This document shows positions 12,480-32,260 of a DNA stretch of 64,000 bases, in pieces. Source of the stretch: Ignavibacteriales bacterium (GTDB taxonomy: Bacteria; Bacteroidota; Ignavibacteria; Ignavibacteriales; Ignavibacteriaceae); the NCBI GenBank assembly GCA_038214015.1, contig JBBQSH010000001.1, positions 1,407 to 65,406 on the forward strand, given 5' to 3'. Positions within the stretch are counted from its first letter, which is position 1, and each line of letters opens with the position of its first letter. Position numbers and translations under genes: made by a program. The notes beneath the pieces are model-generated. The model made no database searches and was not told where the DNA came from. It saw nothing but the letters and a program-made list of their open reading frames with translations.

Positions 12480-12509
12480 GATTTAGAACAAAATTTTTAA
12501 TTAGTAAAA

Positions 12510-12535
12510 CCCGAGTTCTCACTCGGGTTTTTTTA
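12510..12535. terminator. bidirectional Rho-independent terminator between convergent genes
   Basis: CCCGAG-TTCTCA-CTCGGG is followed by T8 on the plus strand and preceded by an A-run (a T-run on the minus strand). Confidence 0.8.
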
Positions 12536-12646
12536 TTATTTTTTTTGCTGTGTTTTAAAAACTTTATAGAAAGAAATTACTACTAATGAAATAATAATTG
12601 TCCAAGCAAGTGCTAAAAAAATTATACCGTTTGTTGTAAGTCCCAT
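12536..12646 (-). CDS. 36-aa single-TM protein, probable MetS-like small subunit of the NSS transporter
   Basis: My own translation gives MGLTTNGIIFLALAWTIIISLVVISFYKVFKTQQKK*. The ATG lies 2 nt after the transporter stop and the stop abuts the terminator. It is below the ORF-track size cutoff. Confidence 0.55.
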   Translation of the reverse strand: MGLTTNGIIFLALAWTIIISLVVISFYKVFKTQQKK

Positions 12647-12648
12647 TA

Positions 12649-14208
12649 TTAAACCTCGCTATGATTATTTTCCCAGGCTTTTTTTACCATCAGCATCAAA
12701 ATTACTGCAATGGCAGCCATCAAAATTCTTGCACCCCAAATGTAAGGTACATTTTCCGGAACAGCGTTTTGTAACAGCAGAGTAGGTATTGCGCTTTGTA
12801 TAAACCACCAAATCATTAACACCATCAGAATAACCGGTGTAATATATTTCATAACGTAATAAAAGAACATCGGTATTTGTATATCACCACCCTGATTCAT
12901 TTCTTTCCAGGCTTTATCTGCACCAAAAACCCACATGAATAAAATAGTCTCTATCAAAGCGAATACAACAAGACCAAAAGTACCAGCCCAATAATCCATC
13001 TCATCTAAAAATCCATACTTTAAAAAGAATATTACAAATTGAACTGCGATCAAAACTGCAATTGCTAATGCCGTTACTGCTTTTTTTCTATCCATTCCAA
13101 ATTCATCTTCTAAAAACGCTACAACAGGTTGTCCCATTGCAACCGAAGAAGTTATTCCTGCAAAAAACAGAAGTAAAAACCACATAAACCCAAACACTTC
13201 TCCCATTGGAAAATGAGAACTGCCAAAAATTATTGGCATTGATACGAATCCAAGATTAAAAGCTCCACCTTGTGCAATTTCTTTCGTTGCATCTAATCCA
13301 AAAAAAGCCACTGCAACAGGAATTGCGATTGAGGCACCAAGTACAACTTCTGCAAATTCGTTTGTTGATGCTGTTGCTAATCCTGATAACACAATATCAT
13401 CATTTGGTTTTAGATAACTTGCATATGCGTGTATTGTTCCCATACCAACAGATAGAGTAAAAAATATCTGTCCTGCAGCAGCAAGCCAGATGTTTGGATT
13501 ACCGAGTGCAGAGAAATCAGGATTCCAGATGAAGGCAAATCCATTTGCAACGGAGTTTTCAGGAAAAGCAGGGTCAGGTGTGCCAAGAGTAAAAATTCTT
13601 ATGGCAAGAATAATTGCGAAGATGAATAACAGCGGCATAGCGATCTTTGCAAGTTTTTCTATACCTTTTGAAATCCCTTTATACAGCACTGCAAAATTTA
13701 TTGAAAATGTTAATAGCATTAATAAGTATGCAGGCCAGATAGAGGTGAATGTTTGTGATGTTGTAATTCCTTGATAGCTGGAAAGAAAACCAGTCATTGT
13801 CTCTTTGGTTTCGTTTGAGTACAACCCAAGAATTGAGAAAATACTAAAACCAAGAGTCCAGGATTCTATGTATGTATAGTAAATAAGGATTGTAATAGAG
13901 ATAAATAATCCAAGAGCACCAAAATATTTTGCAAGTTTATTTTTCCAGAGTACATCAAACATTCCTGGCGCGCTGCCGTGTCTAAATTTTCCGCCATGTC
14001 TTCCAATTCCCCATTCAATCCACATGAGTGGAATACCAAGGAGTAAGAAAAAAATGAAATACGGTATCATAAAAGCACCACCGCCATTTTGGGCTGCCTG
14101 AACCGGGAATCTTAGAAAATTTCCCAATCCAACAGCATTACCAGCTACGGCTAAAATCAAACCTATTTTGGTTCCCCACTGCTCACGTTCGCCGTTTAGA
14201 GCCATCAA
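12649..14208 (-). CDS. sodium-dependent transporter, NSS/SNF family
   Basis: GLGNFLRFP signature, about 12 TM segments, 519 aa. Confidence 0.9.
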   Translation of the reverse strand: MMALNGEREQWGTKIGLILAVAGNAVGLGNFLRFPVQAAQNGGGAFMIPYFIFFLLLGIPLMWIEWGIGRHGGKFRHGSAPGMFDVLWKNKLAKYFGALGLFISITILIYYTYIESWTLGFSIFSILGLYSNETKETMTGFLSSYQGITTSQTFTSIWPAYLLMLLTFSINFAVLYKGISKGIEKLAKIAMPLLFIFAIILAIRIFTLGTPDPAFPENSVANGFAFIWNPDFSALGNPNIWLAAAGQIFFTLSVGMGTIHAYASYLKPNDDIVLSGLATASTNEFAEVVLGASIAIPVAVAFFGLDATKEIAQGGAFNLGFVSMPIIFGSSHFPMGEVFGFMWFLLLFFAGITSSVAMGQPVVAFLEDEFGMDRKKAVTALAIAVLIAVQFVIFFLKYGFLDEMDYWAGTFGLVVFALIETILFMWVFGADKAWKEMNQGGDIQIPMFFYYVMKYITPVILMVLMIWWFIQSAIPTLLLQNAVPENVPYIWGARILMAAIAVILMLMVKKAWENNHSEV

Positions 14209-14371
14209 ACCTCCTGGAAATTAAGGAAATTCTAAAAATCAAGTGTGAATATGAAAACTTTGAAGGTTAATATCAAATAAATTTGAAAGGATAAATTGGT
14301 GCTCTAAATCAAACTTCTTAAAACAGTTAAAAAAACATTACAATCATTTTTATTCTTTAGTTAGTAATTAG

Positions 14372-14379
14372 TAAATTTG
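14372..14379 (+). promoter_or_regulatory. candidate -7 promoter element TAnnTTTG
   Basis: TAAATTTG lies 25 nt upstream of the ATG at 14405. Confidence 0.3.
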
Positions 14380-14404
14380 GATGGTTAAATAAATAGGATA
14401 TGCA

Positions 14405-15040
14405 ATGGCAAAAAAGTTCGTTTCCAATAAAGATGAAACTGTAAGAATGTTTAAGAATGATTTTATGGAATCACTATCAAGAGTACATCCTTCAGTTCCA
14501 CTGATAATATTTGTTCCAGTTATAATGTATATGTTATACTTATCAATTTTTGATTTTAAAATTGGTGTTTTTTCCATAATAGGATTGATAGTATTCGGAT
14601 TGTTCATCTGGACAATTACAGAATATTTACTTCACAGATTTATCTTTCACCTTGAGTTAAAAAGTAAAATAGGTGCAAGGATACATTTTATTTTTCACGG
14701 TGTTCATCACGATTATCCAAGTGATTCCAGAAGATTGGTTATGCCTCCGTCTGTAAGTATTCCACTTGCTACATTATTTTATTTCTTATTTAGTTTTTTA
14801 ATTGGTGATGTTTCCGTACTTCCTTTCTTTGCTGGTTTTTTAATTGGATATCTTTTTTATGATATATCACATTATGCTATTCATCATTTTAATATGCACA
14901 GTAAGTTTTGGTTAGCAATTAAGAATCATCATATCAAACATCATTACCAGGATCCTGATAATGGATACGGAGTTAGTTCTCCTATTTGGGATTATGTTTT
15001 TAGAACACATTATCCAATTAAAGAAGAACAAAAAGCTTAA
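14405..15040 (+). CDS. fatty acid hydroxylase / sterol desaturase superfamily membrane protein
   Basis: Histidine boxes HRFIFH, HGVHHDYP, HYAIHH and HHIKHH, with TM helices. Confidence 0.75.
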   Translation: MAKKFVSNKDETVRMFKNDFMESLSRVHPSVPLIIFVPVIMYMLYLSIFDFKIGVFSIIGLIVFGLFIWTITEYLLHRFIFHLELKSKIGARIHFIFHGVHHDYPSDSRRLVMPPSVSIPLATLFYFLFSFLIGDVSVLPFFAGFLIGYLFYDISHYAIHHFNMHSKFWLAIKNHHIKHHYQDPDNGYGVSSPIWDYVFRTHYPIKEEQKA

Positions 15041-15096
15041 AATTATATTTTTAGTTTGGCAATTAGCAGGAGATTACAATTATTAAAAACGGATTT

Positions 15097-16737
15097 GTGA
15101 AGTTTTACTACCTTGTTTTCTTTCTGATTTCACAAATAATGTTTGTTAATTGCCATACTTCTCTCTCCAATGATATTTTTATCCGAACAAATCAAATTGG
15201 TTTCTTTCCCGATGATTTAAAAACTGCTGTAATACTTTCAAAAACCAATTTACAGGGTAAGCCATTTTATATCTTAGAAAACAATTCTAGTGAAATAAAA
15301 TTTGAAGGCAGTGTAGCAGATTCTCCATCAGTTTATGGGAATTTTAATTTTTGTTATGAAATTGATTTTTCAAGTCTAAACACCACAGGCACATACAAAA
15401 TAAAATTGGCGGATACCGAATCTTATCAATTTCAGATTGGTAATTTAATCTTTAATAATGTAAGAGATTCACTCAGCCTTTTTTTTAAAGCACAACGCTG
15501 CGGACCAACAAATCCAATATTGCACCAGCCTTGTCATCTTTCGGACGCCGCCAAAATTATTGGTTATAAAGATTCAACTGCTCGAGATTTAACCGGCGGC
15601 TGGCATGATGCGGGTGATTATGTTAAGTTTTTAAAAACTACTGCTTATACAACATATCTATTATTATTTAGTTATGAATTTGATTCCCAAAAATTTGGAT
15701 ATGATTTAGATAAAAATGATGTTCCCGATATTTTAGAAGAAGCAAAAGTTGGGCTTGATTGGTTATTAAGATGTAATGTGGATGATCATACATTAGTCTC
15801 TCAAGTGCAAAATGAATCCGATCATGACATCGGATGGCGATTACCTGAAAATGATAGTCTGCAATTTGATCGCCCGGCTTTTGTTAGCATAGGAAAAAAT
15901 ACAATTGGTATTTATAGCGCAGCACTTGCCTTGGCATCTAGAATCTGGAAGGAGAAATTTTATGATGAAAATTTTGCAGCCATCTGTCTAAAAACATCTG
16001 AAAGATTTTATTCTCTCAGGAATAATGTACAGAATATTGATACAACATTTTCAAATCATTATCCTGAAAAAGATTTTAATGGAAGATTAGCTCTCGCATC
16101 TGTAGAACTTTATAACAGCACTAATTCTGAAAAATATCTTGAAGAAGCATTTGAATATGGCAATAAAGCCGGATCAGATTTCTGGTGGAGTGTTGGGGAT
16201 ATCAACTCTTTATCTCACTATAAAATTGCACTTCACAATTCTGATTTTACAAAATACATTTATCAAAATCTTAAGCACTCTAAAAAAACAAGTGATATAT
16301 CTTTTCTGCGTGAAGGATTACAGTATTCCTGGGGTACAACAAACTCTTTTCTGGGAGTAAGTTTGCAAACAATTCTTTACAAAAAACTGACTGGTTCCGA
16401 AGAGTTCGATTCATTAAATATTTATCAACGGGATTATGTCTTAGGCAGAAATCCGTGGGGTATAAGTTTTATTTACAATATCGGAACAAAATTTTCTAAA
16501 AACCTACATTCACAAGTAGCATTTTTTAATAGTGGATATTTACCAGGTGCCCTTACTGCAGGACCTGCACCTTCCAATCTTTTGGAAAAATATAAAATAC
16601 AGAGACAGAATACTGACGATGATTTTAATTCTCATTTAATAAAGTATTTTGATGATAGAATGGATTATATCACTAACGAACCAACAATTGTAGGAAACGC
16701 CACCGCGCTTTTTGTTTTCGGAGTATTAAGTAATTAA
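15097..16737 (+). CDS. secreted glycoside hydrolase family 9 endoglucanase with an N-terminal Ig-like domain
   Basis: GGWHDAGDYVKF catalytic signature, C-terminal NEPTIVGNA, an N-terminal signal peptide and a CelD_N-like module. Confidence 0.88.
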   Translation: MKFYYLVFFLISQIMFVNCHTSLSNDIFIRTNQIGFFPDDLKTAVILSKTNLQGKPFYILENNSSEIKFEGSVADSPSVYGNFNFCYEIDFSSLNTTGTYKIKLADTESYQFQIGNLIFNNVRDSLSLFFKAQRCGPTNPILHQPCHLSDAAKIIGYKDSTARDLTGGWHDAGDYVKFLKTTAYTTYLLLFSYEFDSQKFGYDLDKNDVPDILEEAKVGLDWLLRCNVDDHTLVSQVQNESDHDIGWRLPENDSLQFDRPAFVSIGKNTIGIYSAALALASRIWKEKFYDENFAAICLKTSERFYSLRNNVQNIDTTFSNHYPEKDFNGRLALASVELYNSTNSEKYLEEAFEYGNKAGSDFWWSVGDINSLSHYKIALHNSDFTKYIYQNLKHSKKTSDISFLREGLQYSWGTTNSFLGVSLQTILYKKLTGSEEFDSLNIYQRDYVLGRNPWGISFIYNIGTKFSKNLHSQVAFFNSGYLPGALTAGPAPSNLLEKYKIQRQNTDDDFNSHLIKYFDDRMDYITNEPTIVGNATALFVFGVLSN

Positions 16738-16927: not shown

Positions 16928-18133
16928 ATGAAAAAAAGCGTTCAATTATTCCGTTCCGGTATTCCAATCGTTGATAACGCTTGGGGAGGATTTTATCACG
17001 GCGGAACATATTTATTAGTTGGTGAAAAAAAATCCGGCAAAACTTTATTAAGTCTTCAATATGCTGTAGAGGCTGCAAAGAATAAACAAGTTTGTCTTTA
17101 CTTCACAAACTCTCGCCCTAAAGATTTGATAATTCACGCAGCATCCATTGATATCGATCTTGAAAATTACATTAATCAAAATACAATTATTGTTGTACGT
17201 GTTGCACGACCAACAGAAACCACTGAATTTAAAAGCAGGGATGAATTTTTAAGTGATTACCTCCATGATATTATATCTGTAATCAATCAGTATAATCCGA
17301 CAAGAATAATATTTGACGAATTGACACCGTATGTGGAGTATGAAAATCTTAATAGTCTTAGAGAATCATACGGTTCGATGATTGAATCAATTGAAGATTT
17401 AGGTATTACAAGTCTATTTATTTTAAGGGAACCTGCGGCTCAATCTTCTAAAATGATTTTTAATGTTTTGAATTCATTTGCAACAGGTATAATTCAGCTT
17501 CATAAAGCCGAAGATAGTGAAGAACAGCAGCCTGGCATAATTGATATCACTCCAAATATCGGGCATACCGAAGGAAAATTTAAAGCAAATTATTTTATAG
17601 AACCTTACAAAGGTATTACCACAGATTTTAAGAGTACCAAACGATCAACCAGAGAAAATATCTTACCGGAAATAACAGAATTGATACCAACCAAGACAGG
17701 CGGTTCAAATTCTCCGGAATATTTAGTCCCAAACATTTATAGCATTAATGATTTTAAACTTATTATCAATAATCAGATCGCATTGTATAAAACTACAGGA
17801 CAAATGTTTACAATTTTGTCACTCAGCCTTAATTTAACGAGTCCATCACTACCACGAATCTCACTTGAACAATTAAGCTATTCTGTAAAATCAGTTGCTC
17901 ATAAGAAAGATAAAATCTGCACAATCGAGGATAAAATTTATATTCTTATAACTAAATCTGATGATAAATTAATTGATGATTTCATTTCAAAAGTTCACCG
18001 AACATTAAGCAGCAACGGATCAACTAATGTATCTTATTTAATGTTAAAAGTAAATGACTCTATGAATAGTGCTGATGATGTCTTCAAAGAATTTGAAAGT
18101 GAAATTGCCAGAATTCAATTAAATCAGAGATAG
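16928..18133 (+). CDS. KaiC/RecA-superfamily ATPase with a C-terminal domain of uncertain type (possibly degenerate GGDEF-like)
   Basis: SGIPIVDNAWGGFYHGGTYLLVGEKKSGKT (Walker A) and RIIFDELT (Walker B). The C-terminal ~135 aa have no canonical motif. Confidence 0.7.
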   Translation: MKKSVQLFRSGIPIVDNAWGGFYHGGTYLLVGEKKSGKTLLSLQYAVEAAKNKQVCLYFTNSRPKDLIIHAASIDIDLENYINQNTIIVVRVARPTETTEFKSRDEFLSDYLHDIISVINQYNPTRIIFDELTPYVEYENLNSLRESYGSMIESIEDLGITSLFILREPAAQSSKMIFNVLNSFATGIIQLHKAEDSEEQQPGIIDITPNIGHTEGKFKANYFIEPYKGITTDFKSTKRSTRENILPEITELIPTKTGGSNSPEYLVPNIYSINDFKLIINNQIALYKTTGQMFTILSLSLNLTSPSLPRISLEQLSYSVKSVAHKKDKICTIEDKIYILITKSDDKLIDDFISKVHRTLSSNGSTNVSYLMLKVNDSMNSADDVFKEFESEIARIQLNQR

Positions 18134-18148
18134 AATTGACTATAGAAG

Positions 18149-20995
18149 ATGAAATTATTTTTCTATCAATTACTTATTCTGAACCTAACTTTATTTAGCA
18201 CTTCTATTTTTTCTCAAAATTACAACTCCTCTAATTATAAAGCAGAAGCTCTTCAACTGATTAGTTCGGGACGGTATGGTGAAGCGATAGACGTATTAAA
18301 TAAATATGTCTCTGCAAATCCAAACTCCGCAGAGGGATTTAATTTGCGTGGTGTGTGTTACGAAAAAAGAGGTAACTATGAATATGCTGTTTACGATTTT
18401 CGAACCGCGAAAAAACTTACACCCAACGATGATGAAATCTCATCAAACCTAAACAGAACAACTTCTGATTGGTACAAAATCCTTTACAATAAAATCGAAG
18501 GACATAAAAGAGAAATTGCTATCAATTCCAACATTGCTAAAAATTATCTTGAGATAGGGAAGTGCTATAAAAATTTAGGCAACTGGAATGAGGCTGAAAT
18601 TTGGTATGATATATATTTAGAAAAAGAAACTGCTTCTTCTGATGAGATAATTCGTTACTCTGAAATATTAGCTAAGAACAACCATATTTCTAAAGGTGAA
18701 CCAATTTTAAGATCTTACACAGAACACTTCTCTGATGATCATAGATTGTGGTCAAGATACGGATACTTTACACTTTGGCTTGGTAAAAATAAAATTGCAA
18801 TCGAAGCATTTACCAAATCCTTAGAGATACGACCATACTTTAAAGAAGCGATGGATGGATTAGATTTAGCCAAAGGTAAGGGATACATTTACTCTATTAA
18901 CGATACCACCTCGCGGTTCAATTATGGAATGCAGCCAACTGCTAAGCAATATGAAATTGATAGATTATATCGTGTTATAAAAAATAATCCTTCCGATAGT
19001 GAGAGTAGATTTAAACTTGTTGATGAATTGATTACTGCAAACCGATTTGAAGAAGCGTATGAACAATTACGAATTTTATCATCGGACTTTGCTGATCTAG
19101 ACAGATTTAAAGACTTATGGTTAAAGGTAACTACGCTAAGAAAATCCTATTACGCGGATCGCATTAGATTTTATGAAGAAAAGTTGAGCAAAGATCCTGC
19201 GAACAAAGAAGCACTTTTAGAATTAGCAAAATTCTATTCTTATAATAATAATTATACGTTGGCTGCGAATCTTTACAAAAGTTATCTGTTAAAATATCCG
19301 AATGATTATGAAGTAAGATATAAATTAGCGCAAATTTTAATGTGGCAAAATAATCTTTGCGAAGCCGCTGCGGAAGCTGAATATCTGCTTAAATCATTGC
19401 CGGATAATAAAAATTATGTGTTATTGGCTGCTCAAATCAATTATTGGTTAGATAAAGATTTAGTTTACACACAATCACTTTTTGAAAAAGTATTGGTATT
19501 GGATTCCCAAAACAGTGAGGCTATGTACGGATTGGCAAATCTTTATGTCCGAAGTAACAAACTTGCTGATGCTGAAAAATTAATTAATAAAATATCTTTG
19601 TATGATAGCTCTACTACAAAATTTGTTTTACTCCAAAAAAGTCTTGAAGTCGCGAAAATTCAAAATGAGTTAGTTGAATCTAATAAGATATTAGAGGAAG
19701 CAAGAATGTATTCTTCAAATAAAGATTATGATTCAGCTATAAAATCTTTTAACGAATATCTCTTAAATGATCCAAATAATAAGTCAGTAAAACTTGAGCT
19801 GGCTAATGTTTACATTGCAAATTTCGAATTGAATAAGTCAATAAAAATTTATGATGAGTTGCTGAAATCAAACAGCGATTATGAAATAGAAAAACAACGT
19901 GCAAAAGTTTATCTATGGAATGGTGATTCGCTTTTAGCACTTAAAGAATTTAGAAAATTGAATCAAAAATATCCTGATGATGTAGAAGCTAAATTACTGC
20001 TTGGTGATGCTTATTTGCAAAATGGGCAAGTGCAAAATGCAAGAATCGTTTATGAAGATCTTCTACTTAAATCTCCGGACTCGCATATAATTAAAACACG
20101 TTTAGGGTGGCTTGGCGGAAGCGATAAGTTTTCATTTGAAAAATTTCCAACATATATACAATTAATTCCCAGAGCATCATACTTTACTGATAATACAGAT
20201 TTTGGTTATTCAAACCTTGGTTTTGGTTTTGATTTAGGTGTAACAAATTTTCTTACTTTTGGGTTATCTGCTGCACGTGGTCAACTATCATCGGCTGAAG
20301 ATGATTTGAGGTTTAATCAGATTAAAGGATCAGCGTACGTAAGATTTAACGAAATATTTTCAGGAGTTGGCAGCTTTGGACAGACATACTTTGTTAATGA
20401 TCTCCAAGAAAATATTATAGAACTGTCTTTAACTGCGCAGAAAAAAAATATTTTTAATGTTACAGCATTCTTAAATTATTCTGATGCAGCGTTTATACTT
20501 TACTCACCATTTTTAGTTAACACCAGATTGAATGCGTATTATTTTGGTCTTAATGGCGAATATAAGTTTAAAAATAATTTAGTTGTATCCGGAAAATATT
20601 CATACATAGATGTCTCAGATGATAACTCAGGAAATCAATTTGTGGCAAGATTAGGAAAAGTTTTTGAATCCGATATAACTGCCGGTTACGAATATTATTT
20701 CTATTCTTTTAAAACAGAAACTCAGCTTTATTGGAGTCCGAAGAATTTTGAATCACATTCTATCTGGGCAGATTGGATCCTTTATAAGGATAACACATTT
20801 GATTTTACTATTGGCGGCAAAATTGGACTAATCCTACAAAATGATTTTATACTCTCCGAATTTTATGCTTCAATTAACTATCAAATTGTAAAAAACCTTC
20901 TTTTTCAAACTAGATTTACCACAGGAAGTTCGTTTAGATCCAATACTGGTTATAGATCAAATTCTATCCAGGCAAGTTTAATCTGGGGATTGTAA
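18149..20995 (+). CDS. outer-membrane exopolysaccharide export protein candidate: signal peptide, long TPR array, C-terminal beta-barrel (PgaA/BcsC/PelB-like architecture)
   Basis: Signal peptide MKLFFYQLLILNLTLFSTSIFSQ, about 650 aa of TPR-like repeats, and a final ~290 aa (from about nt 20130) with an alternating hydrophobic/aromatic beta-strand pattern. Confidence 0.7.
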   Translation: MKLFFYQLLILNLTLFSTSIFSQNYNSSNYKAEALQLISSGRYGEAIDVLNKYVSANPNSAEGFNLRGVCYEKRGNYEYAVYDFRTAKKLTPNDDEISSNLNRTTSDWYKILYNKIEGHKREIAINSNIAKNYLEIGKCYKNLGNWNEAEIWYDIYLEKETASSDEIIRYSEILAKNNHISKGEPILRSYTEHFSDDHRLWSRYGYFTLWLGKNKIAIEAFTKSLEIRPYFKEAMDGLDLAKGKGYIYSINDTTSRFNYGMQPTAKQYEIDRLYRVIKNNPSDSESRFKLVDELITANRFEEAYEQLRILSSDFADLDRFKDLWLKVTTLRKSYYADRIRFYEEKLSKDPANKEALLELAKFYSYNNNYTLAANLYKSYLLKYPNDYEVRYKLAQILMWQNNLCEAAAEAEYLLKSLPDNKNYVLLAAQINYWLDKDLVYTQSLFEKVLVLDSQNSEAMYGLANLYVRSNKLADAEKLINKISLYDSSTTKFVLLQKSLEVAKIQNELVESNKILEEARMYSSNKDYDSAIKSFNEYLLNDPNNKSVKLELANVYIANFELNKSIKIYDELLKSNSDYEIEKQRAKVYLWNGDSLLALKEFRKLNQKYPDDVEAKLLLGDAYLQNGQVQNARIVYEDLLLKSPDSHIIKTRLGWLGGSDKFSFEKFPTYIQLIPRASYFTDNTDFGYSNLGFGFDLGVTNFLTFGLSAARGQLSSAEDDLRFNQIKGSAYVRFNEIFSGVGSFGQTYFVNDLQENIIELSLTAQKKNIFNVTAFLNYSDAAFILYSPFLVNTRLNAYYFGLNGEYKFKNNLVVSGKYSYIDVSDDNSGNQFVARLGKVFESDITAGYEYYFYSFKTETQLYWSPKNFESHSIWADWILYKDNTFDFTIGGKIGLILQNDFILSEFYASINYQIVKNLLFQTRFTTGSSFRSNTGYRSNSIQASLIWGL

Positions 20996-21178: not shown

Positions 21179-22603
21179 ATGAAAATAAATCAGCTTGTCG
21201 ATCGTGCTAAAATAACTATTTCGAACAGGGAAGATGAGAAAAAAGGAGAGAATCTCGGGCAAAAATATTTACGAAGAATACTCGTAAGCGGTATTGTTTC
21301 TCTTTTACTGATCTTAGTAATAGTATATACTTTACCTTACACCATTTTATCATTCAGTTCACTATTTGAGTATTCAACAATTATTGCTCTTGTTATTTTT
21401 CTTTTCATCCTTCTTGTAAGATACTTTGCCATATTAATTATGGCATATTTATACCTGAATGAATACACATTTTCTGATACGAATGGTTATGCTCCATTTG
21501 TTTCTATAATAGTTCCCGTTTTTAACGAAGGTAAAATAATTAGAAAATCAATTCTATCTCTGCTTAATCTTGATTATCAGAATTACGAAATAGTTGTTGT
21601 TAATGATGGTTCAACCGATGATACAAAACAAGTTGCTGAATCTATGGTTGGTTTTCAGGATGGTAAGTACGGAAAGATTAAAATTTCATTAATCAATCAG
21701 CCAAATTTGGGAAAAGCACGAGCACTAAATGCCGGCATATATTTTTCAAAAGCTGATTTTCTTCTTTGCATGGATGGAGACTCTCAGCTTGCCCCGGAAT
21801 CTATAAAAGTTGCAGTACGACATTTTATACATCCTAAAATTGGTGCGGTTGCTGGCAATGTAAAAGTTCTTAACAGAAAAAGATTTTTTACAGATCTTCA
21901 GGCATTGGAATATATTGAAGGCTTAAATATGGCTCGCAGTGCACAGAGTTATATTAGACTGGTAAATATTATTCCCGGTCCAATTGGAATCTTTAGAAGA
22001 AAAGCGATAGAACAAGCAGGTTATTATTCAAGTGATACTTATGCTGAAGATGCTGATTTAACATTAAAGATTTTATCAAAAGGCTGGAAGATTTATTACG
22101 AGCCAAAATCTATTTCTTATACTGAAGCTCCTGTAACATTACAGCAGCTTCTAAAGCAAAGATACAGATGGACGAGAGGGATTCTTCAGTCATTACGAAA
22201 ACATAAAAAATTAATGTTTAACCCTACAGTTAATTTAGGGCACACATTTATATTATGGGTAATGTCTTATGAAGCTCTTATTTGGCCGACAATGAATATA
22301 GCAGCAAATGCATTTTTTATTTTTGCAGCATTATTTTTTGGATTTTCACACTTGATCTTTTTCTGGTGGGCAGGATTAGCAATTTTAGATCTTGTTACTG
22401 CGCTTTATTGTGTTGCGGTAGAAAAAGAAGAATTTAGGCTAATCTGGTATGCAATTATTTACAGAATGTTTTTTATTTTAATTATAGATATTTGTAAAAC
22501 CATGTCAACTATCGAGGAATTTCTTGGAATCAGAATGACGTGGGGAAAATTAGAGCGAAGTAGTTCACCTAAATCAGATACAATTGCAGTTAATACTAAT
22601 TAG
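21179..22603 (+). CDS. processive family-2 glycosyltransferase (PgaC/IcaA/NodC-like polysaccharide synthase)
   Basis: N-terminal TM pair, VVNDGSTD, CMDGDS (DXD), AEDADLT, and QRYRW (Q-x-x-R-W, nt 22157-22171). C-terminal TM bundle and no PilZ domain. Confidence 0.85.
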   Translation: MKINQLVDRAKITISNREDEKKGENLGQKYLRRILVSGIVSLLLILVIVYTLPYTILSFSSLFEYSTIIALVIFLFILLVRYFAILIMAYLYLNEYTFSDTNGYAPFVSIIVPVFNEGKIIRKSILSLLNLDYQNYEIVVVNDGSTDDTKQVAESMVGFQDGKYGKIKISLINQPNLGKARALNAGIYFSKADFLLCMDGDSQLAPESIKVAVRHFIHPKIGAVAGNVKVLNRKRFFTDLQALEYIEGLNMARSAQSYIRLVNIIPGPIGIFRRKAIEQAGYYSSDTYAEDADLTLKILSKGWKIYYEPKSISYTEAPVTLQQLLKQRYRWTRGILQSLRKHKKLMFNPTVNLGHTFILWVMSYEALIWPTMNIAANAFFIFAALFFGFSHLIFFWWAGLAILDLVTALYCVAVEKEEFRLIWYAIIYRMFFILIIDICKTMSTIEEFLGIRMTWGKLERSSSPKSDTIAVNTN

Positions 22604-22611
22604 GAAATTAA

Positions 22612-23064
22612 ATGGAACTTATCCCGATACTATCTACTATTATTCTTGTTGCCACAATATGTACCTTCATATTGGCAATCGGGGCATATATTCTTTATAA
22701 AGTTCGAGAGGGAAAACCACAGCATAGTTATCAGACTAAACCCGCAACTGTGCAAGGTGAACTTGTTGTTCCATCAGAAGCAATCTATACTAAGGATTCT
22801 ACTCGAGTTGAACGCACAAATATTAAAAATGTTGAACCTGGAGTTACAAGAGAAGAATACACAAAGCAGCACCAGCCATCACAATCAAAACATACGCCTG
22901 AACCTCGTGGATATAAAATTGAAGAAGAAAAAGTTGAGAAACGAAAAGTTCGGGTTAGACCGCAAGAAAGATTTAGTGATGAAAATAAATTCCTGAAATA
23001 CACTTCTGAAGGTTACATACCTACGCAGGAAGATAGAAATTCAGGGGAAGTGAAGTGGCGGTAA
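22612..23064 (+). CDS. small single-pass membrane protein with a highly charged tail (occupies the PgaD/IcaD position)
   Basis: N-terminal TM helix IPILSTIILVATICTFILAIGAYILY followed by a K/E/R/Q-rich region. It starts 8 nt after the GT2 stop and overlaps the next gene by 10 nt. Confidence 0.5.
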   Translation: MELIPILSTIILVATICTFILAIGAYILYKVREGKPQHSYQTKPATVQGELVVPSEAIYTKDSTRVERTNIKNVEPGVTREEYTKQHQPSQSKHTPEPRGYKIEEEKVEKRKVRVRPQERFSDENKFLKYTSEGYIPTQEDRNSGEVKWR

Positions 23065-24953
23065 ATAATTTTTTTGGTATAAGGATAAATCAATTTTTTA
23101 TCTTTGTTTCGGGTTTCGTTATACTCATTTCAGCGATTCTTGTCTATTATTTTATTCTTCGTGGAATCTACGGTCGATTCGACACTTCAGAAGTTCTTCC
23201 TAACTCAAATATTATAGAAGATTTTTTATTTGGTAAGGAACCGGAAGTTGCAATTCTTTATTCCAAATACACAGAAAATACTTTACCAGTCGGCAGTACA
23301 TGGCTTAATGATAATTTATCTACGTGGAAAATATTTCTTGATAATCTAAATCTTAAATATGAAATAATTTCAGATCAGAAAATAGAAAACGGAGATCATC
23401 AAAAGTATAAACTGATAGTATTACCGGGAACAAAATCTTTAAGTGAAAAAGAAGCCTTGCAGATAAAAAAATATTTAGAAAATGGCGGAAGTGTTTTTGC
23501 TACAGGAGGAATCGGATCATATTCCAACGATGGTAAATGGCGTGGATGGGAATTCCTTAATCAGGTTTTTGGAGTGCAATTTTCTCACGAACTAAAACCA
23601 AATGAGTTTTCTAAAATACATACAGTGTGCGGAAGCCTGCCAATTACTGCAAATATTCCAACCGGATTTCCTCTAAAAGTTGCAACATGGGACAGACCAA
23701 TGGCAGTTGAAGTTTTGGATCCGAGAACCACTCAAGTAAGTTTTTGGTACAACTATAGAATGGATGATGGACTTGTTCGTGAAGAGATTAAAAAATCTGC
23801 AGGCATAGCTTATGGAAATTTTGGCAAAGGAAGATTTATGTGGATGGGATTTGAGTTGAATTCCATAATCGGTGTGCAGGAGGATTACATTTATTTTGAA
23901 AGACTTTTTAATAACTCAATAAAATGGTTAATGTATTTTCCGATTGCGTATGTAAGAGATTGGCCTACGGGATACGAAGCCGCTGCAGTTGTTGCTCCTG
24001 TTCTTACAAACGATGTTGATAACATCAATAATATTTTGCCGATCATAAAAAATGAAGGAATATCTGCCACTTTTTTTGTTGATCCGGCAACAGCGGAAAA
24101 TAACAGAGAACTTGTTAGAAAAATTTCTTCCTATGGAGAGATAGCCGCGTTGGTTGATATTGGTTATTTAGCCTCTGTGAATGATAGGTTCAATAAGCTT
24201 AATTCATATGCAGAACAATCTAAAAAACTAAGTGCAGCAAAAGAAACCTTAGAAAAAATTTCCTCAAGTAGTGTCTCAGGTTTTTTACCATACTACGGTT
24301 TGTTTGATCAGAATACTTTGAATGCAGTAATTAATTCAAACTACAAATATGTTCTTACAGATTCTCTTACTGATCGATCAGTTCCTAAAACAATTATTCG
24401 TGGTGATAAGAGAATTGTTACGATGACAAAAACTGCGCGTGATGATTATGAAATTATAAGAGATTTTGGATTAACTCTTCCGGAATTTCAATTTTATACT
24501 TATCAGGAGGATTTAGATCGGGTTCTTTTTGAAGGTGGTATGTATATCTTAAAACTTCATACAGAATATCAATGCAGAAGTGATTATGCAAGTGTGTTGA
24601 AAGATGTAATCAAAGATCTTAAAAAGAAAAAATTCTGGATTGCAACTGCAAATGAAATTCAAAAGTGGTATGAAAAAAGAGATTATATTGAGATCAAGGC
24701 TGATAGAAGAGGTAAAACTCGTGTAGCATTAAAAGTCTCAAATCCGGGTATTGAGGCTATAAATAATCTGGTTATTGATCTTGATCTAAATGACTTTGCA
24801 CAAAACATTACAATCGGTTCAGAAATTATTGGAACTAAAACTGCAAGCGTAAAACATTCAGCTGGCTCACAAATGGTTTATTTATTTATTGATGATTTAA
24901 AACCAGGCGAATCAAGGCAATATTATATTGATTATGACAAGGTCGCTTTTTAA
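23055..24953 (+). CDS. membrane-anchored protein with a GATase1-like N-domain and a diverged NodB/polysaccharide-deacetylase-like C-domain
   Basis: N-terminal TM helix. KLIVLPGTKSLSEKEALQIKKYLENGGSVFATGG resembles a class-I amidotransferase-like (ThuA/beta-galactosidase trimerisation) fold. The C-domain has LTNDVDN, ATFFVDP and FLPYYG at NodB motif positions but lacks the metal-binding His pair. GTG start. Confidence 0.5.
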   Translation: MAVNNFFGIRINQFFIFVSGFVILISAILVYYFILRGIYGRFDTSEVLPNSNIIEDFLFGKEPEVAILYSKYTENTLPVGSTWLNDNLSTWKIFLDNLNLKYEIISDQKIENGDHQKYKLIVLPGTKSLSEKEALQIKKYLENGGSVFATGGIGSYSNDGKWRGWEFLNQVFGVQFSHELKPNEFSKIHTVCGSLPITANIPTGFPLKVATWDRPMAVEVLDPRTTQVSFWYNYRMDDGLVREEIKKSAGIAYGNFGKGRFMWMGFELNSIIGVQEDYIYFERLFNNSIKWLMYFPIAYVRDWPTGYEAAAVVAPVLTNDVDNINNILPIIKNEGISATFFVDPATAENNRELVRKISSYGEIAALVDIGYLASVNDRFNKLNSYAEQSKKLSAAKETLEKISSSSVSGFLPYYGLFDQNTLNAVINSNYKYVLTDSLTDRSVPKTIIRGDKRIVTMTKTARDDYEIIRDFGLTLPEFQFYTYQEDLDRVLFEGGMYILKLHTEYQCRSDYASVLKDVIKDLKKKKFWIATANEIQKWYEKRDYIEIKADRRGKTRVALKVSNPGIEAINNLVIDLDLNDFAQNITIGSEIIGTKTASVKHSAGSQMVYLFIDDLKPGESRQYYIDYDKVAF

Positions 24954-27916: not shown

Positions 27917-30900
27917 TTGGAAATAAAAAATAAAGAGTGGCTGTATATACTTGGCAGAAATTCCGATTACCATGGTGACCCGCTCATTATTTTAGATGAA
28001 TCATTTGAAATAGTATTTACTAATCAAAAAGCCGCCTCTCTTTTTCTTATTGATGACCATCATATTACCTTAGAACAGGTTTTTGAAAAAGAAACGGTTA
28101 ATGAACTAACAGATTTTATCGGACCAGTAATTAATACCTTCCAAAAAAATATTTTTAAAAATATTTCAGTCAATTTAAAGTCAGGAAACAGTTCCGCATT
28201 TGATTTATCCATCGAACCAATTCAAACTGAAGAAACGTTAAATGTTATAATAGTTTTTAGAAGTATTGAAAATATTAATGCATATGATCTTTTGAGTAAG
28301 ATTAAAATTACTTCTTTCAAAAATATTTTATCTGATAAAAATAATCCTGCGAAAACAATAATATCGGAATTACAAAGCCTGGCTCCATTTACAATAATTT
28401 CTTTAAAGAAAGTTCAACATATAATTGATCAATATGATTACCCGATTTGGATTAAGGATGTTGAAAGCAAACTGTTTGCCATCAATAATACTTACGCTAG
28501 TATTTTAGGGATTGAAAATTCTTTTGCATCGGGTAAAAAACATGAGACATTTTTACCGCCTCATCAGAAAACAATTTATAAAATGATGGACCAATATGTT
28601 ATTCTTAATTCGCAGCAAATAATTTTAGAAGGATTTAGTAAAAAAGTTAAAAATTTTGAAGTTATTCAGAATATTATTCAAGTTCCTTTAGTAGATAATT
28701 TTAATAAAATACTTGCGATAGTTGGTCTAATTGTTGATAATCAGTATGATTATTATAACTTTTGGGGAGAAAAAGAATTCTTTAGTGCTTTAGTTAGTAG
28801 TTTCCCAAAACCTTCGGCATACATAAATTCTGATGGGGTGATCAAAGGATTTAATGAAAAATTCAAAGAATTCTTTGAGTTAGAAAATGGACAAATATCT
28901 GATAAAAGAATTGATGAAATATTTCCACCTAATGTTGTTAGTAAAATCAATTCATTTATTCAAAATGATTTAATAGAAGAATCTTTTCAATTATTTGAGG
29001 TGATGACTCCTGCTGATTCTTCACAATCTAATGTTCAACTGTTTTTATTAAAAATATCAAATTCAGAAAAACATAAGTCAAATATTTTTGTTACGATTGA
29101 AACGCTTGCTGACACAATAAATTCTGAAGACGAACTCCAAAACATTTTAATGCATAGAGGAAAGATGTTCGAAATTTTAATACAAAAAAATCCTGAACCA
29201 ATTTTTGTTTACGATAAAGAAAATCTAAAATTTCTTGAGGTAAACGATGCTGCAATAAAATTGTACGGATACAGCCGTGATGAATTTCTTCAAATGGATC
29301 TTACTGATCTTTATGCACCGGAAGATATTCAGACCTTATTAGATTCTTTTGGTAATGAATCATCGGAAGCTAGATTCAGTAAACCCTTTAGACACAGAAA
29401 AAAAAATGGTTCAATTGTTCTTGTAGAGATAAGTAATACTTCATTCAAGTTTAATGATAGAGAAGCTCACTTTAATATTGTTAAGGATATTACTGATAGT
29501 ATAGCAAAAGACAAACAATTTCAAATGCTCAGGATTATTTTTAATGAGTCCGATTTAATGATTTTCAGCACCGATTCTTCCGGCTTTGTAACATTCATAA
29601 ATAAAAACGTAACAAAAACCCTCGGTTACACTAATGAAGAAATTCTTCAATTATCCTTTGCAAGTCTTGTTGCTGATGATGACCGTGGAATTGTAAACAC
29701 TTCAATATTTCAATCTCAAGTAAAAGATTCTGTGGTCCTGAAATCAAAATTTAAGGATGCACATGGAAATAATATTGAAGCTGAAATTTATGCATCTACG
29801 ATTCTTGATTTTGATGGTGGTATTGATTCATTTACAATTATAGTAAAACCAGTTTCAGAAAAATCAAGTACAACCGAACCAAAAGAAATCGTTAAAGAAG
29901 TAATTAAAGAGGTTGTAAAAGAAGTTGTTGTTGAAAAACCAGGCAGCAGCAGCCAGAAAAAAACTCTTATTCCCGATTCAAATTTTCTTTCCGGAATGTT
30001 TCATGAAATTTTAACTCCAATTAATGTAATAATTGGATTTTCTCAGGAATTAATAAGCAGTACAGAAAATCCTACTGAAGAACAATTAGAGGCAGCCGAA
30101 ATAATTAATCAAAACCGCATTAAAATGATGGATACGATGAATGCCGTTGTTGAGTATTCAGATATAATGCAAAATAAATCCCCACTAAAAATTGAATATG
30201 TAACGATAACAGATCTTATCGAAAAATTAGATAACAACATAAAAGACATAACAGGAATAAATGATATTCAGTTTGCATATGGCAAAATATCTTCATCCTT
30301 AAAATTTAAATCAGATACGCAAAAATTTGAAAACTTTATTCTTTCATTAATTAAAGTTGTATCAAGATTAAGCAAAGACAAAAAAGTTTACTTCTCAGCT
30401 TTTACAGTTGATACAGAATCATTTATTATCGGCATTAGTGATCAGTACGGCAATCCTTCTGAATACGTTGCCAATGTTCTTGAACAGGTTTTTGGTAATG
30501 ATAAAGATCCTAAAGATTTTGGCTTGCCTAAATTAACTACCTATTTTGGGAGAATACTTCTAAAATATTTAGGTGGAAAATTTTATAAATCGTCCTCAGA
30601 TACCTATCGAAACGAAACTGGATTTATTTTTCCGATCGTATTTTCGGATATTTCAAAAAATAATATATATGATTCGGTTAATGAAGTTATCTCTTCAGTG
30701 ACTTCACAAGAAAATTTTAATGAGTATGATATTAATGCTTCAGTTAAGGTTGATGTAGAGCAAGAAGATTATTCTCAAGAGACTTTAGAAGTAAATGATA
30801 AAGACTTAGATGAAGGTTACACTAAAGATGATACAGAAGAATTAGCTTCTGACTCTTCGGATGATATCTTCAAACCTGTCCAGCCAATTTCACAGGAACT

Positions 30901-31501
30901 ACCTTCAAAAATAGTTGAAGAAAAACCAGTTGAAGATGAATCAATCCAACAGGAAATACACACATTTGAAAAGTTGAATCAGAGTGCACCTGAGGAGTTA
31001 AGTGATAGTGAATACAGCCAGCAAGAATCCGATGTTGAAGAAGATGTTTCTGAAACAATTAAAGATGAATTAAGTTCTGATGCTGATAACTTACTGGGAG
31101 TTAAACCACCACAATCATTAGATCTAACAAAATTAAACTGTCTTTATATAGAAGATCAGGTTGATTCTCAGATTCTATTTAAAGTGCAAATGAAAGAATT
31201 ACATGATGTTAAGTTTGCTGTAAGTTTTGAAGAAGCACAACAGGTAATGCTTAATTATCAATTTGATTTTATTGTGATGGACATAAATTTACAAGGTGAG
31301 TATAACGGACTTGATGCGTTGAAAATTATAAAAACCATGCCCGCATTTAGTTCAATTCCAATTATTGCCGTTACTGCTTATGTTCTTCCTGGTGATAAAG
31401 AAAAGTTTATTGTTGCCGGATTTGATGATTTTATATCTAAACCAATTTTCAAAGAAAAGATGATAGAATCTTTGGAAAAGATATTTCTCTCAAAGTACTA
31501 G
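27917..31501 (+). CDS. multi-PAS hybrid sensor kinase-like protein with a degenerate ATPase domain, acidic linker and C-terminal receiver domain
   Basis: The H-box FHEILTPINVIIGFSQEL is present. N-box Asn and the G1/G2 glycines are not recognisable (SLIKVVSRL, ISDQYGN, DFGLPKL). A D/E/S-rich linker of ~140 aa follows. The receiver has VMDINL (Asp) and ISKP (Lys). TTG start per the track. Confidence 0.7.
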   Translation: MEIKNKEWLYILGRNSDYHGDPLIILDESFEIVFTNQKAASLFLIDDHHITLEQVFEKETVNELTDFIGPVINTFQKNIFKNISVNLKSGNSSAFDLSIEPIQTEETLNVIIVFRSIENINAYDLLSKIKITSFKNILSDKNNPAKTIISELQSLAPFTIISLKKVQHIIDQYDYPIWIKDVESKLFAINNTYASILGIENSFASGKKHETFLPPHQKTIYKMMDQYVILNSQQIILEGFSKKVKNFEVIQNIIQVPLVDNFNKILAIVGLIVDNQYDYYNFWGEKEFFSALVSSFPKPSAYINSDGVIKGFNEKFKEFFELENGQISDKRIDEIFPPNVVSKINSFIQNDLIEESFQLFEVMTPADSSQSNVQLFLLKISNSEKHKSNIFVTIETLADTINSEDELQNILMHRGKMFEILIQKNPEPIFVYDKENLKFLEVNDAAIKLYGYSRDEFLQMDLTDLYAPEDIQTLLDSFGNESSEARFSKPFRHRKKNGSIVLVEISNTSFKFNDREAHFNIVKDITDSIAKDKQFQMLRIIFNESDLMIFSTDSSGFVTFINKNVTKTLGYTNEEILQLSFASLVADDDRGIVNTSIFQSQVKDSVVLKSKFKDAHGNNIEAEIYASTILDFDGGIDSFTIIVKPVSEKSSTTEPKEIVKEVIKEVVKEVVVEKPGSSSQKKTLIPDSNFLSGMFHEILTPINVIIGFSQELISSTENPTEEQLEAAEIINQNRIKMMDTMNAVVEYSDIMQNKSPLKIEYVTITDLIEKLDNNIKDITGINDIQFAYGKISSSLKFKSDTQKFENFILSLIKVVSRLSKDKKVYFSAFTVDTESFIIGISDQYGNPSEYVANVLEQVFGNDKDPKDFGLPKLTTYFGRILLKYLGGKFYKSSSDTYRNETGFIFPIVFSDISKNNIYDSVNEVISSVTSQENFNEYDINASVKVDVEQEDYSQETLEVNDKDLDEGYTKDDTEELASDSSDDIFKPVQPISQELPSKIVEEKPVEDESIQQEIHTFEKLNQSAPEELSDSEYSQQESDVEEDVSETIKDELSSDADNLLGVKPPQSLDLTKLNCLYIEDQVDSQILFKVQMKELHDVKFAVSFEEAQQVMLNYQFDFIVMDINLQGEYNGLDALKIIKTMPAFSSIPIIAVTAYVLPGDKEKFIVAGFDDFISKPIFKEKMIESLEKIFLSKY

Positions 31502-31630: not shown

Positions 31631-32260
31631 ATGATTATGCAAAAAGAGCTAACTACAATTCAAAAGAGCATTCTGGATTTTCTGATTGACCAAATAAAAG
31701 GAAAGGGAATTCCACCAACGCTTGCTGACGTAGCAAAACATTTTGGATATAAAAATCGTGCAACCGTGCAGCAGCATTTTCAAGCAATAGAAAAGAAAGG
31801 ATATATCAGAAAAAGTCCAAAACTTTCTCGCGGTATAGAACTTACTCTTGAAGATAAATTTTTTGTGCCACGACCAATACTTGGTGAGGTTGCTGCAGGA
31901 AATCCATTAACTATTTATCCTGATGCAATTGATACAGTAAAACTTCCAACAATAGCCAGAATGCCGCAAGATTCTTTTCTGCTTCGTGTAAAAGGTGATA
32001 GTTTAAAAGATGCATATATTTTTAGCGGCGATATTGTAATCGTAAACCCAAATCTTGAACCGAAGAATGGACAAATTGTTGTTGCAATTCTTGATGACGC
32101 TGCAGTTGTTAAAAGATATTATAAAAAGCGAAGTGAGATTGAACTCGTTTCTGAAAATGCTGAGTACAAACCAATAGTTATAGATAAGAAATATGCTTCC
32201 TTTAAAATCGTTGGAATTGTGGTAGGTATTTATCGAAGTATGGAAAAAAAAGCAGGATGA
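31631..32260 (+). CDS. lexA: LexA repressor (S24 peptidase)
   Basis: wHTH N-domain (TLADVAKHFGYKNRATVQQHFQAIEKKGYI), VAAGNP cleavage region, Ser in GDSL and Lys in VVKRY. Confidence 0.9.
   Translation: MIMQKELTTIQKSILDFLIDQIKGKGIPPTLADVAKHFGYKNRATVQQHFQAIEKKGYIRKSPKLSRGIELTLEDKFFVPRPILGEVAAGNPLTIYPDAIDTVKLPTIARMPQDSFLLRVKGDSLKDAYIFSGDIVIVNPNLEPKNGQIVVAILDDAAVVKRYYKKRSEIELVSENAEYKPIVIDKKYASFKIVGIVVGIYRSMEKKAG

Follow-up and report, generated by a model that had tools for sequence, protein, structure and literature searches.

Degenerate GGDEF domains are the classic link by which cyclic di-GMP (c-di-GMP) is coupled to the synthases of exopolysaccharides (EPS), as in PelD, BcsE and PssE. PelD of the Pseudomonas Pel system has a transmembrane-GAF-GGDEF architecture, in which the GGDEF domain is degenerate and the RxxD motif of the inhibitory site (I-site) is intact. 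BcsE is the regulator of enterobacterial cellulose secretion in Escherichia coli and Salmonella and has a GIL domain (PF10995). Its N-terminal domain is RecA/KaiC-like, has a ruined Walker A motif and functions in oligomerisation; it is combined with a REC domain and a GGDEF domain, both of them degenerate. In the latter, the RxxD motif binds c-di-GMP (with R415 as the I-site arginine), and this GGDEF domain also docks BcsRQ (PMC7439463). Here, we analysed a gene on a stretch of 64,000 nucleotides (nt) from an Ignavibacteriales bacterium (GCA_038214015.1, contig JBBQSH010000001.1), which we call the window. The gene is located at positions 16928..18133 of the + strand and encodes a KaiC-like/degenerate-GGDEF fusion protein that we term KaiC-X. 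The initial annotation had proposed that such a protein would represent an EPS checkpoint of a new kind. This is overstated, as the two kinds of domain already occur together in BcsE of E. coli, which belongs to a synthase-dependent EPS system; there, the RecA/KaiC-like N-terminal domain is degenerate, and the GGDEF domain, likewise degenerate, is a c-di-GMP receptor (PMC7439463). EPS regulators with a degenerate GGDEF domain, including one with a RecA-like domain, are already known, and KaiC-X is an unannotated, phylum-wide variant of them. The variant is distinguished by an intact P-loop, the lack of a degenerate REC domain and of RxxD, a truncated GGDEF core that is undetected by profiles, and a co-conserved sensor without a recognisable kinase domain.

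The KaiC-X gene is a complete open reading frame (ORF) that starts with ATG and encodes 401 amino acids (aa) plus a stop codon; on the opposite strand, no rival ORF reaches 60 aa. The protein consists of a KaiC/RecA-like P-loop domain (approximately residues 9-233, 16952..17626, + strand), a disordered linker of about 30 aa and a GGDEF-fold domain of about 135 aa (residues 268-401, 17729..18130, + strand). Both this fusion and the gene order around it are conserved, and the gene occurs phylum-wide in the Ignavibacteriota.

The assignment of the C-terminal domain comes from structure only. Sequence comparison gave zero Pfam or NCBIfam matches at E<=1 and no match to PDB sequences, neither with a single-sequence phmmer search nor with the family profile. 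An hhalign comparison with a GGDEF profile of PleD and a Geobacter protein (PleD plus 6d9m) was non-significant (E=0.49). We thus note that the GGDEF-like domain suggested by the initial annotation is not found by profile searches. Its reading of a GGDEF-like secondary-structure rhythm was nevertheless correct: the template-free AlphaFold2 (AF2) model of residues 264-401, which is based on a 36-sequence alignment, has a predicted local distance difference test score (pLDDT) of 88.1 and a predicted template modelling score (pTM) of 0.83, and all 50 of the top 50 Foldseek matches of this model in the PDB are GGDEF domains, which is far above chance. The matches have E-values from 1.8e-6 to 1.4e-3 (44 of them with E<=1e-3), query template modelling scores (TMq) of 0.50-0.73 and sequence identities of 6-14%, and they include Thermotoga maritima TM1788, Marinobacter 3ign, DosC, PleD, WspR, SiaD and DgcB. 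Furthermore, the full-length AF2 run yielded the identical topology, b0-a0-b1-loop-a2-b2-b3-a3-b4-a4. The predicted structure of the C-terminal domain is thus a GGDEF fold.

The initial annotation had also placed HKKD (residues 325-328) and, after five residues (KICTI), EDKIY (residues 334-338, 17927..17941, + strand) in the register of RxxD, five residues and GG(D/E)EF. This register agrees with the AF2 model, in which strand b2 (KICTI, 329-333), a turn (E334-D335) and strand b3 (KIYILIT, 336-342) form a hairpin that corresponds to CRY-GG-EEFVVIM of PleD. It also agrees with the sole local hhalign alignment, itself non-significant, which equates H325 with R359, D328 with D362, E334-D335 with G368-G369, K336-I337-Y338 with E370-E371-F372 and K355 with R390 of PleD. 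All PleD equivalences given here come from the secondary-structure register together with this non-significant alignment. The string RESD-LLGRY-GGEEF that had been attributed to PleD is not from that protein, which in the PDB reads RAID-LPCRY-GGEEF; the argument from the spacing is untouched by this.

To characterise the conservation of the family, motif composition was tabulated over 91 distinct KaiC-X members. Judged from these sequences, the GGDEF-fold domain of KaiC-X is far more degenerate than those of PelD or BcsE. In PleD, helix alpha1 (FFKKINDTFGH) bears the guanine-binding Asn. In KaiC-X, this helix is replaced by a variable loop of 11 residues. The equivalent of the Mg-binding Asp is R or K in 76 of the 91 members and S in the protein from the window. 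At the position of the GG(D/E)EF signature on the b2-b3 hairpin, residues 334-335 vary between D, G, N, S, E and others, followed by K336 in 68 members and I or V at position 337 in 86. As the GTP/Mg site, helix alpha1 and the signature are lost, the domain cannot make c-di-GMP. In comparison to diguanylate cyclases such as PleD, WspR and TM1788, KaiC-X has a C-terminal domain of the same overall fold, in which the I-site loop and the b2-b3 hairpin are spaced alike; it differs by the lack of a Pfam GGDEF match, of GG(D/E)EF, of the Mg-binding Asp, of the guanine-binding Asn/Asp of alpha1 and of RxxD.

The position of the I-site is occupied by HKKDK (residues 325-329, 17900..17914, + strand), with the family consensus (D/E)-K-K-D-K. 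Here, the position of the RxxD arginine is D in 56 members, E in 15, H in 9, N in 7, S in 3 and F in 1. It is thus acidic in 71 of 91 members and never R or K, and the His found in the window is a minority state. To our knowledge, the RxxD arginine is essential in every characterised I-site receptor, a group that comprises PelD, BcsE, PssE and PopA. A canonical I-site is therefore absent from KaiC-X, and HKKD does not hold up as the PelD-like I-site that the initial annotation had suspected. The remainder of the loop is conserved as K326-K327-D328-K329-I-C331, with K326 in 71 members (plus R in 12), K327 in 81, D328 in 80 and K329 in 89. In addition, K355 on helix a3 (17990..17992, + strand), the equivalent of PleD R390 by the hhalign register, is at a position that is basic in 82 of 91 members (K in 65, R in 17). 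The most conserved block of the domain is N269 to F294 (17732..17809, + strand), which covers strand b0, helix a0, the a0-b1 turn and the start of b1 and has the pattern N269-x-Y271-x3-D275-F276-x-L278-I-x-N281-N282-Q283-I-A-L-x-K288-x-T290-G291-Q292-x-F294.

These patterns bear on the question whether the degenerate GGDEF domain, like those of PelD, BcsE and PssE, is a receptor for c-di-GMP or for another nucleotide messenger, either cyclic or linear. Ligand binding in combination with the state of the ATPase domain would then license polymerisation by the glycosyltransferase family 2 (GT2) synthase that is encoded nearby. Such a role would fit the GGDEF fold, the exact structural register of the pseudo-I-site, the conservation of its loop (K326/K327/D328/K329), which ranks second within the domain, and the basic residue at the position of K355. 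The EPS context is also where such receptors are known (PMC7439463), and the GT2 synthase is without a PilZ domain of its own (Pfam), which leaves room for a separate receptor. However, the arginine of RxxD never occurs and its position is mostly acidic, lysines are poor substitutes at the Hoogsteen edge of guanine, and no genes for GGDEF, EAL or PilZ proteins were found in the window or in the cluster. A local search of 1.43 Mb of locus DNA with a GGDEF profile hidden Markov model gave no match, which is uninformative as this sample consists of redundant copies of one region, and our literature search on c-di-GMP use in Ignavibacteriota returned nothing relevant. We consider a role as messenger receptor rather unlikely, and canonical c-di-GMP sensing by KaiC-X is unlikely as well. 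In place of the I-site, (D/E)KKDK and K355 make up a lysine-rich patch, which is compatible with an anionic ligand or with the acidic surface of a partner and would not fit textbook c-di-GMP recognition.

For the N-terminal domain, the initial annotation as a KaiC/RecA-type domain was borne out. Residues 9-199 match Pfam PF06745 (ATPase/KaiC) with E=1.3e-30 and 107 bits, compared to a cut-off of 26.6 bits, and KaiC chains in the PDB align with the domain in a HMMER sequence search with E-values down to 1e-19. The full-length AF2 model, inferred from a 41-sequence alignment, has a mean pLDDT of 81.5 and is confident at residues 4-237, with a pLDDT mostly above 85 in the P-loop domain. Searching Foldseek with the full model retrieved KaiC, PH0186 (2zts) and FlaH (4yds) at E-values of about 1e-15; the template modelling scores to PH0186 and FlaH are about 0.8 when normalised to these single-domain targets. 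NCBIfam models for KaiC, archaeal KaiC-like proteins and ArlH/FlaH also match KaiC-X, all of them far below their thresholds.

The motifs that had been quoted for both domains are all present in the sequence. Walker A reads GEKKSGKT (residues 32-39, 17021..17044, + strand) and Walker B reads RIIFDELT (residues 126-133, 17303..17326, + strand). In Walker B, D130 is found in all 91 members and E131 in 89. The Lys position of Walker A is K in 45 members and R in 46, and the commonest P-loop is GPRKSGRT, a type to which P0128 belongs. In RecA, the corresponding K-to-R replacement in Walker A (K72R) keeps ATP binding and nearly abolishes hydrolysis. The free interchange of K and R thus suggests that the selected function is nucleotide binding and not turnover. 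In the HMMER alignment to the KaiC chains, the catalytic Glu-Glu of KaiC, which follows strand 2, aligns with N61/S62 in FTNSRPKD (residues 59-66, 17102..17125, + strand). Across the family, these positions are N or S followed by M, S or T, and they are acidic in one exception. Based on the same alignment, the arginine-finger segment of KaiC, K-x-R-G-(S/T)-x-H, is replaced by the family-specific PNIGHTEG (residues 209-216, 17552..17575, + strand), where N210, H213 and E215 are near-invariant and positions 210/211 are never basic. Since half of the family has an Arg in Walker A, and since the Glu pair and the arginine finger of KaiC are missing, the N-terminal domain would be an ATP-binding switch and is unlikely to be a motor. 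Most likely, it is a switch that binds ATP, hydrolyses it slowly or not at all, possibly autophosphorylates, and controls self-association or the binding of a partner, as in ArlH/FlaH.

Like this part of the protein, ArlH/FlaH and PH0186 have just one KaiC-like domain, which comprises about 230 aa. FlaH, which is without a catalytic glutamate, binds ATP and serves a secretion-type ATPase as a nucleotide-dependent adaptor. Unlike KaiC-X, these proteins come from archaea, where they are part of the archaellum motor, and they lack a GGDEF-like domain at the C-terminus; furthermore, PNIGHxEG is the KaiC-X family's own.

The similarity to KaiC could also be taken to mean that KaiC-X is a genuine circadian KaiC or a DNA repair ATPase of the RadA/RecA type. 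KaiC provides the best matches in Pfam, NCBIfam and the PDB, and LexA and a DinB-like polymerase are encoded 13-17 kb downstream. However, KaiC-X has a single domain instead of CI and CII, its scores for NCBIfam NF006799 and TIGR02655 are far below the cut-offs (65 vs 408 and 33 vs 546 bits), and the catalytic Glu pair and the arginine finger are absent. The genes around KaiC-X, from 14.4 to 36 kb, yielded neither a KaiA nor a KaiB domain, and the protein has no zinc finger, Lon or DNA-binding domain. In addition, the gene is in synteny with EPS genes across the whole phylum. We therefore rejected the circadian and the repair readings, whose defining features failed, and we would leave them hardly any probability.

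The two domains are connected by a linker that is variable and predicted to be disordered (approximately residues 234-267, 17627..17728, + strand). The AF2 pLDDT is below 50 at residues 238-267. The mean identity within the family is 22% in the linker, compared to 63% in the N-terminal and 44% in the C-terminal domain, and the length of the linker varies across the family alignment, between roughly 10 and over 80 residues.

To study the distribution of the family, we used several searches. A word-indexed search yielded 1104 homologs of KaiC-X. The best 120 of these 1104 all have about 400 aa and the same architecture and come from Ignavibacteriota where a taxon is named. The ortholog of the cultivable Ignavibacterium album (e.g. 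P0119/P0120) is about 55% identical. In the databases, homologs are labelled as 'ATPase domain-containing protein', 'KaiC/GvpD/RAD55 family RecA-like ATPase' or 'circadian clock protein KaiC'. When one genome per GTDB species was scanned, relatives were found in at least 243 genomes. With a profile of the C-terminal domain alone, only 50 clusters were retrieved when 1.84 billion representatives (50% identity clustering) were searched exhaustively. Among these 50 clusters, no canonical GGDEF proteins were linked to the domain. All full-length cluster members that were checked (10 by Pfam, plus the alignable ones) contain the KaiC domain, with two exceptions. The first, P0148, carries the GGDEF-like domain behind an unrelated N-terminus. 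The second, P0161, is a low-complexity protein of 1389 aa without any Pfam domain that has the GGDEF-like domain at residues 917-993 and no KaiC domain. Its copy of helix a0 (EDFKLILNNQIALYKSTGQ) is near-identical to the Ignavibacteriota consensus; P0161 may therefore be a recent capture or a chimera of assembly or gene calling.

The genomic context was compared with tblastn in 79 retrieved loci from Ignavibacteriota-type metagenome-assembled genomes and in four other loci, and the same gene order was observed wherever the flank was long enough. The conserved order is glycoside hydrolase family 9 (GH9), KaiC-X, TPR/porin, GT2, a small transmembrane protein and a deacetylase-like protein, with the hybrid sensor further downstream. 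The TPR/porin gene (18149..20995, + strand) begins 15 nt past the stop of KaiC-X and encodes a PgaA/BcsC-like exporter, with TPR repeats and a C-terminal outer-membrane beta-barrel according to Pfam and NCBIfam; it is immediately downstream of KaiC-X in all main-family loci with enough flank. It is followed by the membrane GT2 synthase (21179..22603, + strand), which is the most conserved gene of the cluster (60-97% identity by tblastn). The cluster is a synthase-dependent EPS system, and besides the sensor KaiC-X is its sole component that is predicted to be soluble and cytoplasmic. KaiC-X had also been described as the first gene of the EPS cluster. The tight link to the cluster stands, whereas the first position does not: a co-oriented GH9 gene (15097..16737, + strand), whose product has a signal peptide, is a conserved upstream neighbour.

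KaiC-X is thus similar to BcsE in being a cytoplasmic EPS accessory protein that combines a RecA/KaiC-like N-terminal domain with a dead C-terminal GGDEF fold and is encoded in an EPS cluster (PMC7439463). By this analogy, we see about an even chance that KaiC-X is a BcsE-like, nucleotide-binding cytoplasmic regulator or scaffold of the synthase-dependent EPS system of Ignavibacteriota. The N-terminal domain, as an ATP-binding switch, would control self-association or the engagement of a partner. The dead GGDEF domain would serve as the output or interaction module, which may bind a partner protein or an anionic small ligand via the conserved face of helix a0 and the lysine-rich patch that has replaced the I-site. 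As partners, we see three candidates: the GT2 synthase with its cytoplasmic face, the small transmembrane protein with its charged tail or the hybrid sensor with its REC domain. KaiC-X could thereby couple the signal of the sensor and the nucleotide state of the cell to the synthesis or the export of the polymer.

There are clear differences to the known regulators. The Walker A motif of BcsE is destroyed, whereas the P-loop of KaiC-X is intact (with K or R). BcsE has a degenerate REC domain between its two other domains where KaiC-X has only the disordered linker of about 30 aa, and the RxxD motif of BcsE is functional whereas the arginine is never present in KaiC-X. Furthermore, KaiC-X belongs to another phylum and probably to another polymer. 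PelD and PssE of Listeria are similar to KaiC-X in using a degenerate GGDEF fold as the regulatory module of an EPS synthase. In comparison to PelD, KaiC-X is without the transmembrane segment, the GAF domain, the RxxD arginine and helix alpha1, and has a P-loop ATPase domain instead.

Several observations weigh against KaiC-X being a non-hydrolysing, BcsE-like regulator. First, the near-invariant E131, which directly follows the Asp of Walker B, could be a catalytic base, such that ATPase activity is possible. Second, there is no detectable sequence homology to E. coli BcsE (PF10995), as hhalign comparisons with two family alignments gave E-values of 0.5-0.7 and a probability below 1%. Third, no partners similar to BcsR or to the SIMIBI ATPase BcsQ were found among the cluster proteins in Pfam-type scans, and KaiC-X is without a degenerate REC domain. 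Fourth, AF2 does not predict the relative orientation of the two domains (pTM 0.58, with the linker disordered). Fifth, one locus (L005) encodes KaiC-X beside a sensor without EPS genes, and the primary partner could thus be the sensor and not the secretion machinery. As the two proteins have decayed in opposite ways, with the P-loop kept and the I-site lost in KaiC-X and the reverse in BcsE, and as they share no detectable sequence similarity, common ancestry is unproven and convergence is plausible.

The hybrid sensor is a protein of 1194 aa encoded at 27917..31501 (+ strand) and contains PAS domains, a HisKA domain with the H-box FHEILTP and a C-terminal REC domain. Its gene closes the cluster at the 3' end, both in the window and wherever the flank of the other loci extends far enough. 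A HATPase_c domain was not recognisable in the sensor, even at E<=10 on the isolated region after HisKA, and an N-box and G1/G2 were not visible by eye. The same is true for the homolog of the sensor in L005 (L005:9477-11468), where no HATPase_c domain was recognisable either.

Two divergent loci are informative about the association of KaiC-X with the sensor and with the EPS genes. In L005, an apparently intact KaiC-X (P0167) is directly followed by a PAS protein, a PAS-HisKA-REC protein and LexA, and no EPS genes are nearby. This locus suggests that the sensor is a persistent partner of KaiC-X. In L007, KaiC-X (P0156, L007:10001-11221) is 27-28% identical and all EPS genes are missing, whereas the neighbourhood is otherwise kept, with an SNF transporter, the fatty-acid hydroxylase and LexA. 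This copy has lost motifs of the family, with IPGTANFR in place of PNIGHTEG and PEIK in place of KKDK, and downstream (11909-15317), the sensor is broken up into separate ORFs for PAS, HisKA and REC. L007 looks like a joint decay after the loss of the cluster. The loss of the EPS genes together with the decay of the KaiC-X motifs and of the sensor supports a functional tie of KaiC-X to the cluster.

Alternatively, KaiC-X might mainly be a partner of the PAS-HisKA-REC sensor, either by supplying nucleotide binding or phosphoryl chemistry or by gating the phosphorelay, as KaiC does with SasA and CikA; EPS would then be one output. In the cyanobacterial Kai system, proteins of the KaiC family autophosphorylate and control histidine kinases, which speaks for such a role, as do the presence of an H-box and a REC domain in a sensor whose HATPase_c domain goes undetected, the position of the sensor at the end of the cluster and the PAS, HisKA and REC genes directly after KaiC-X in the two loci that lack EPS genes. 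Yet this proposal draws on gene neighbourhood alone, and the catalytic glutamates of KaiC and the context of its phospho-acceptor are not conserved. In the main family, KaiC-X always has secretion genes, and not the sensor, directly beside it, and the copy in L007 looks decayed. In addition, we know of no precedent for a RecA-fold protein that phosphorylates the histidine of HisKA. Hence, we regard a role mainly as the sensor's partner as quite unlikely. A further model combines several of these elements: an ATP-loaded, non-hydrolysing KaiC-like switch with an arginine-free lysine pocket ((D/E)KKDK and K355), which senses a nucleotide messenger or an anionic ligand, would functionally complement the HATPase-less sensor, which would amount to a novel, nucleotide-gated type of EPS checkpoint with a KaiC-driven or KaiC-gated phosphorelay over polysaccharide secretion in Ignavibacteriota. 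We think that this is highly unlikely to be how the system works.

The remaining genes of the region complete the surroundings of KaiC-X. Upstream of the GH9 gene, on its 5' side, the window contains a fatty-acid hydroxylase (14405-15040). The GT2 synthase is PgaC/IcaA- and NodC-like; it scores best against the models of PgaC/IcaA and of NodC/chitin synthase, below their equivalog cut-offs. It is followed by a protein of 150 aa (22612..23064, + strand) with one N-terminal transmembrane helix and a charged tail, which is rich in K, E and R. Its gene always follows GT2 across the family and overlaps the next gene by 10 nt. No match to this protein was found in the Pfam or PADLOC libraries, and it may be a small synthase subunit similar to PgaD or BcsF. 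Next in the cluster are a protein of 632 aa with a polysaccharide deacetylase-like domain (23055..24953, + strand), a protein of 540 aa without an assigned function (24975-26597) and an fn3 protein (26630-27898). The combination of GH9, GT2 and the deacetylase-like protein suggests that the polymer is either based on N-acetylglucosamine and partly de-N-acetylated or a cellulose-like glucan.

Just downstream of the cluster, LexA (31631-32260) and a polymerase of the DinB/Pol IV type (34771-35961) are encoded on the + strand. LexA is also a conserved downstream neighbour in L005 and L007. Both genes are probably unrelated to the EPS genes, and they could mislead an annotation that is based on the similarity to RecA. 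A link to defence systems was rejected, since PADLOC only gave a weak P-loop match (E=0.002). Scanning the window for sigma-70 promoters and terminators resulted in the same counts as in shuffled sequences. There is one perfect sigma-70 consensus, TTGACA-16-TATAAT (12/12), on the minus strand at 22508-22481 inside the GT2 gene; as the number of promoter-like sites equals the shuffled expectation, it is likely due to chance.

Taken together, KaiC-X shows how a phylum that branches deeply and has been studied little has recruited the GGDEF fold to an EPS cluster, where it is fused to a predicted nucleotide-binding P-loop domain and is without RxxD. It defines a domain family that has been missed by Pfam and NCBIfam and corrects the misleading label 'circadian clock protein KaiC'. 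For the origin of regulators that combine RecA and GGDEF domains in the manner of BcsE, it provides a natural comparison, either as a case of convergence or as one of very old common ancestry with opposite decay. It also offers testable residues for the function of a GGDEF fold that has neither an active site nor an I-site, namely K38/R38, D130/E131, H213/E215, K326-K329 and K355. For the field of c-di-GMP and EPS, KaiC-X is thus a testable lead and not a categorical surprise. Ignavibacteriota are abundant in anammox and wastewater biofilms, and regulators of their matrix production may therefore have practical relevance.

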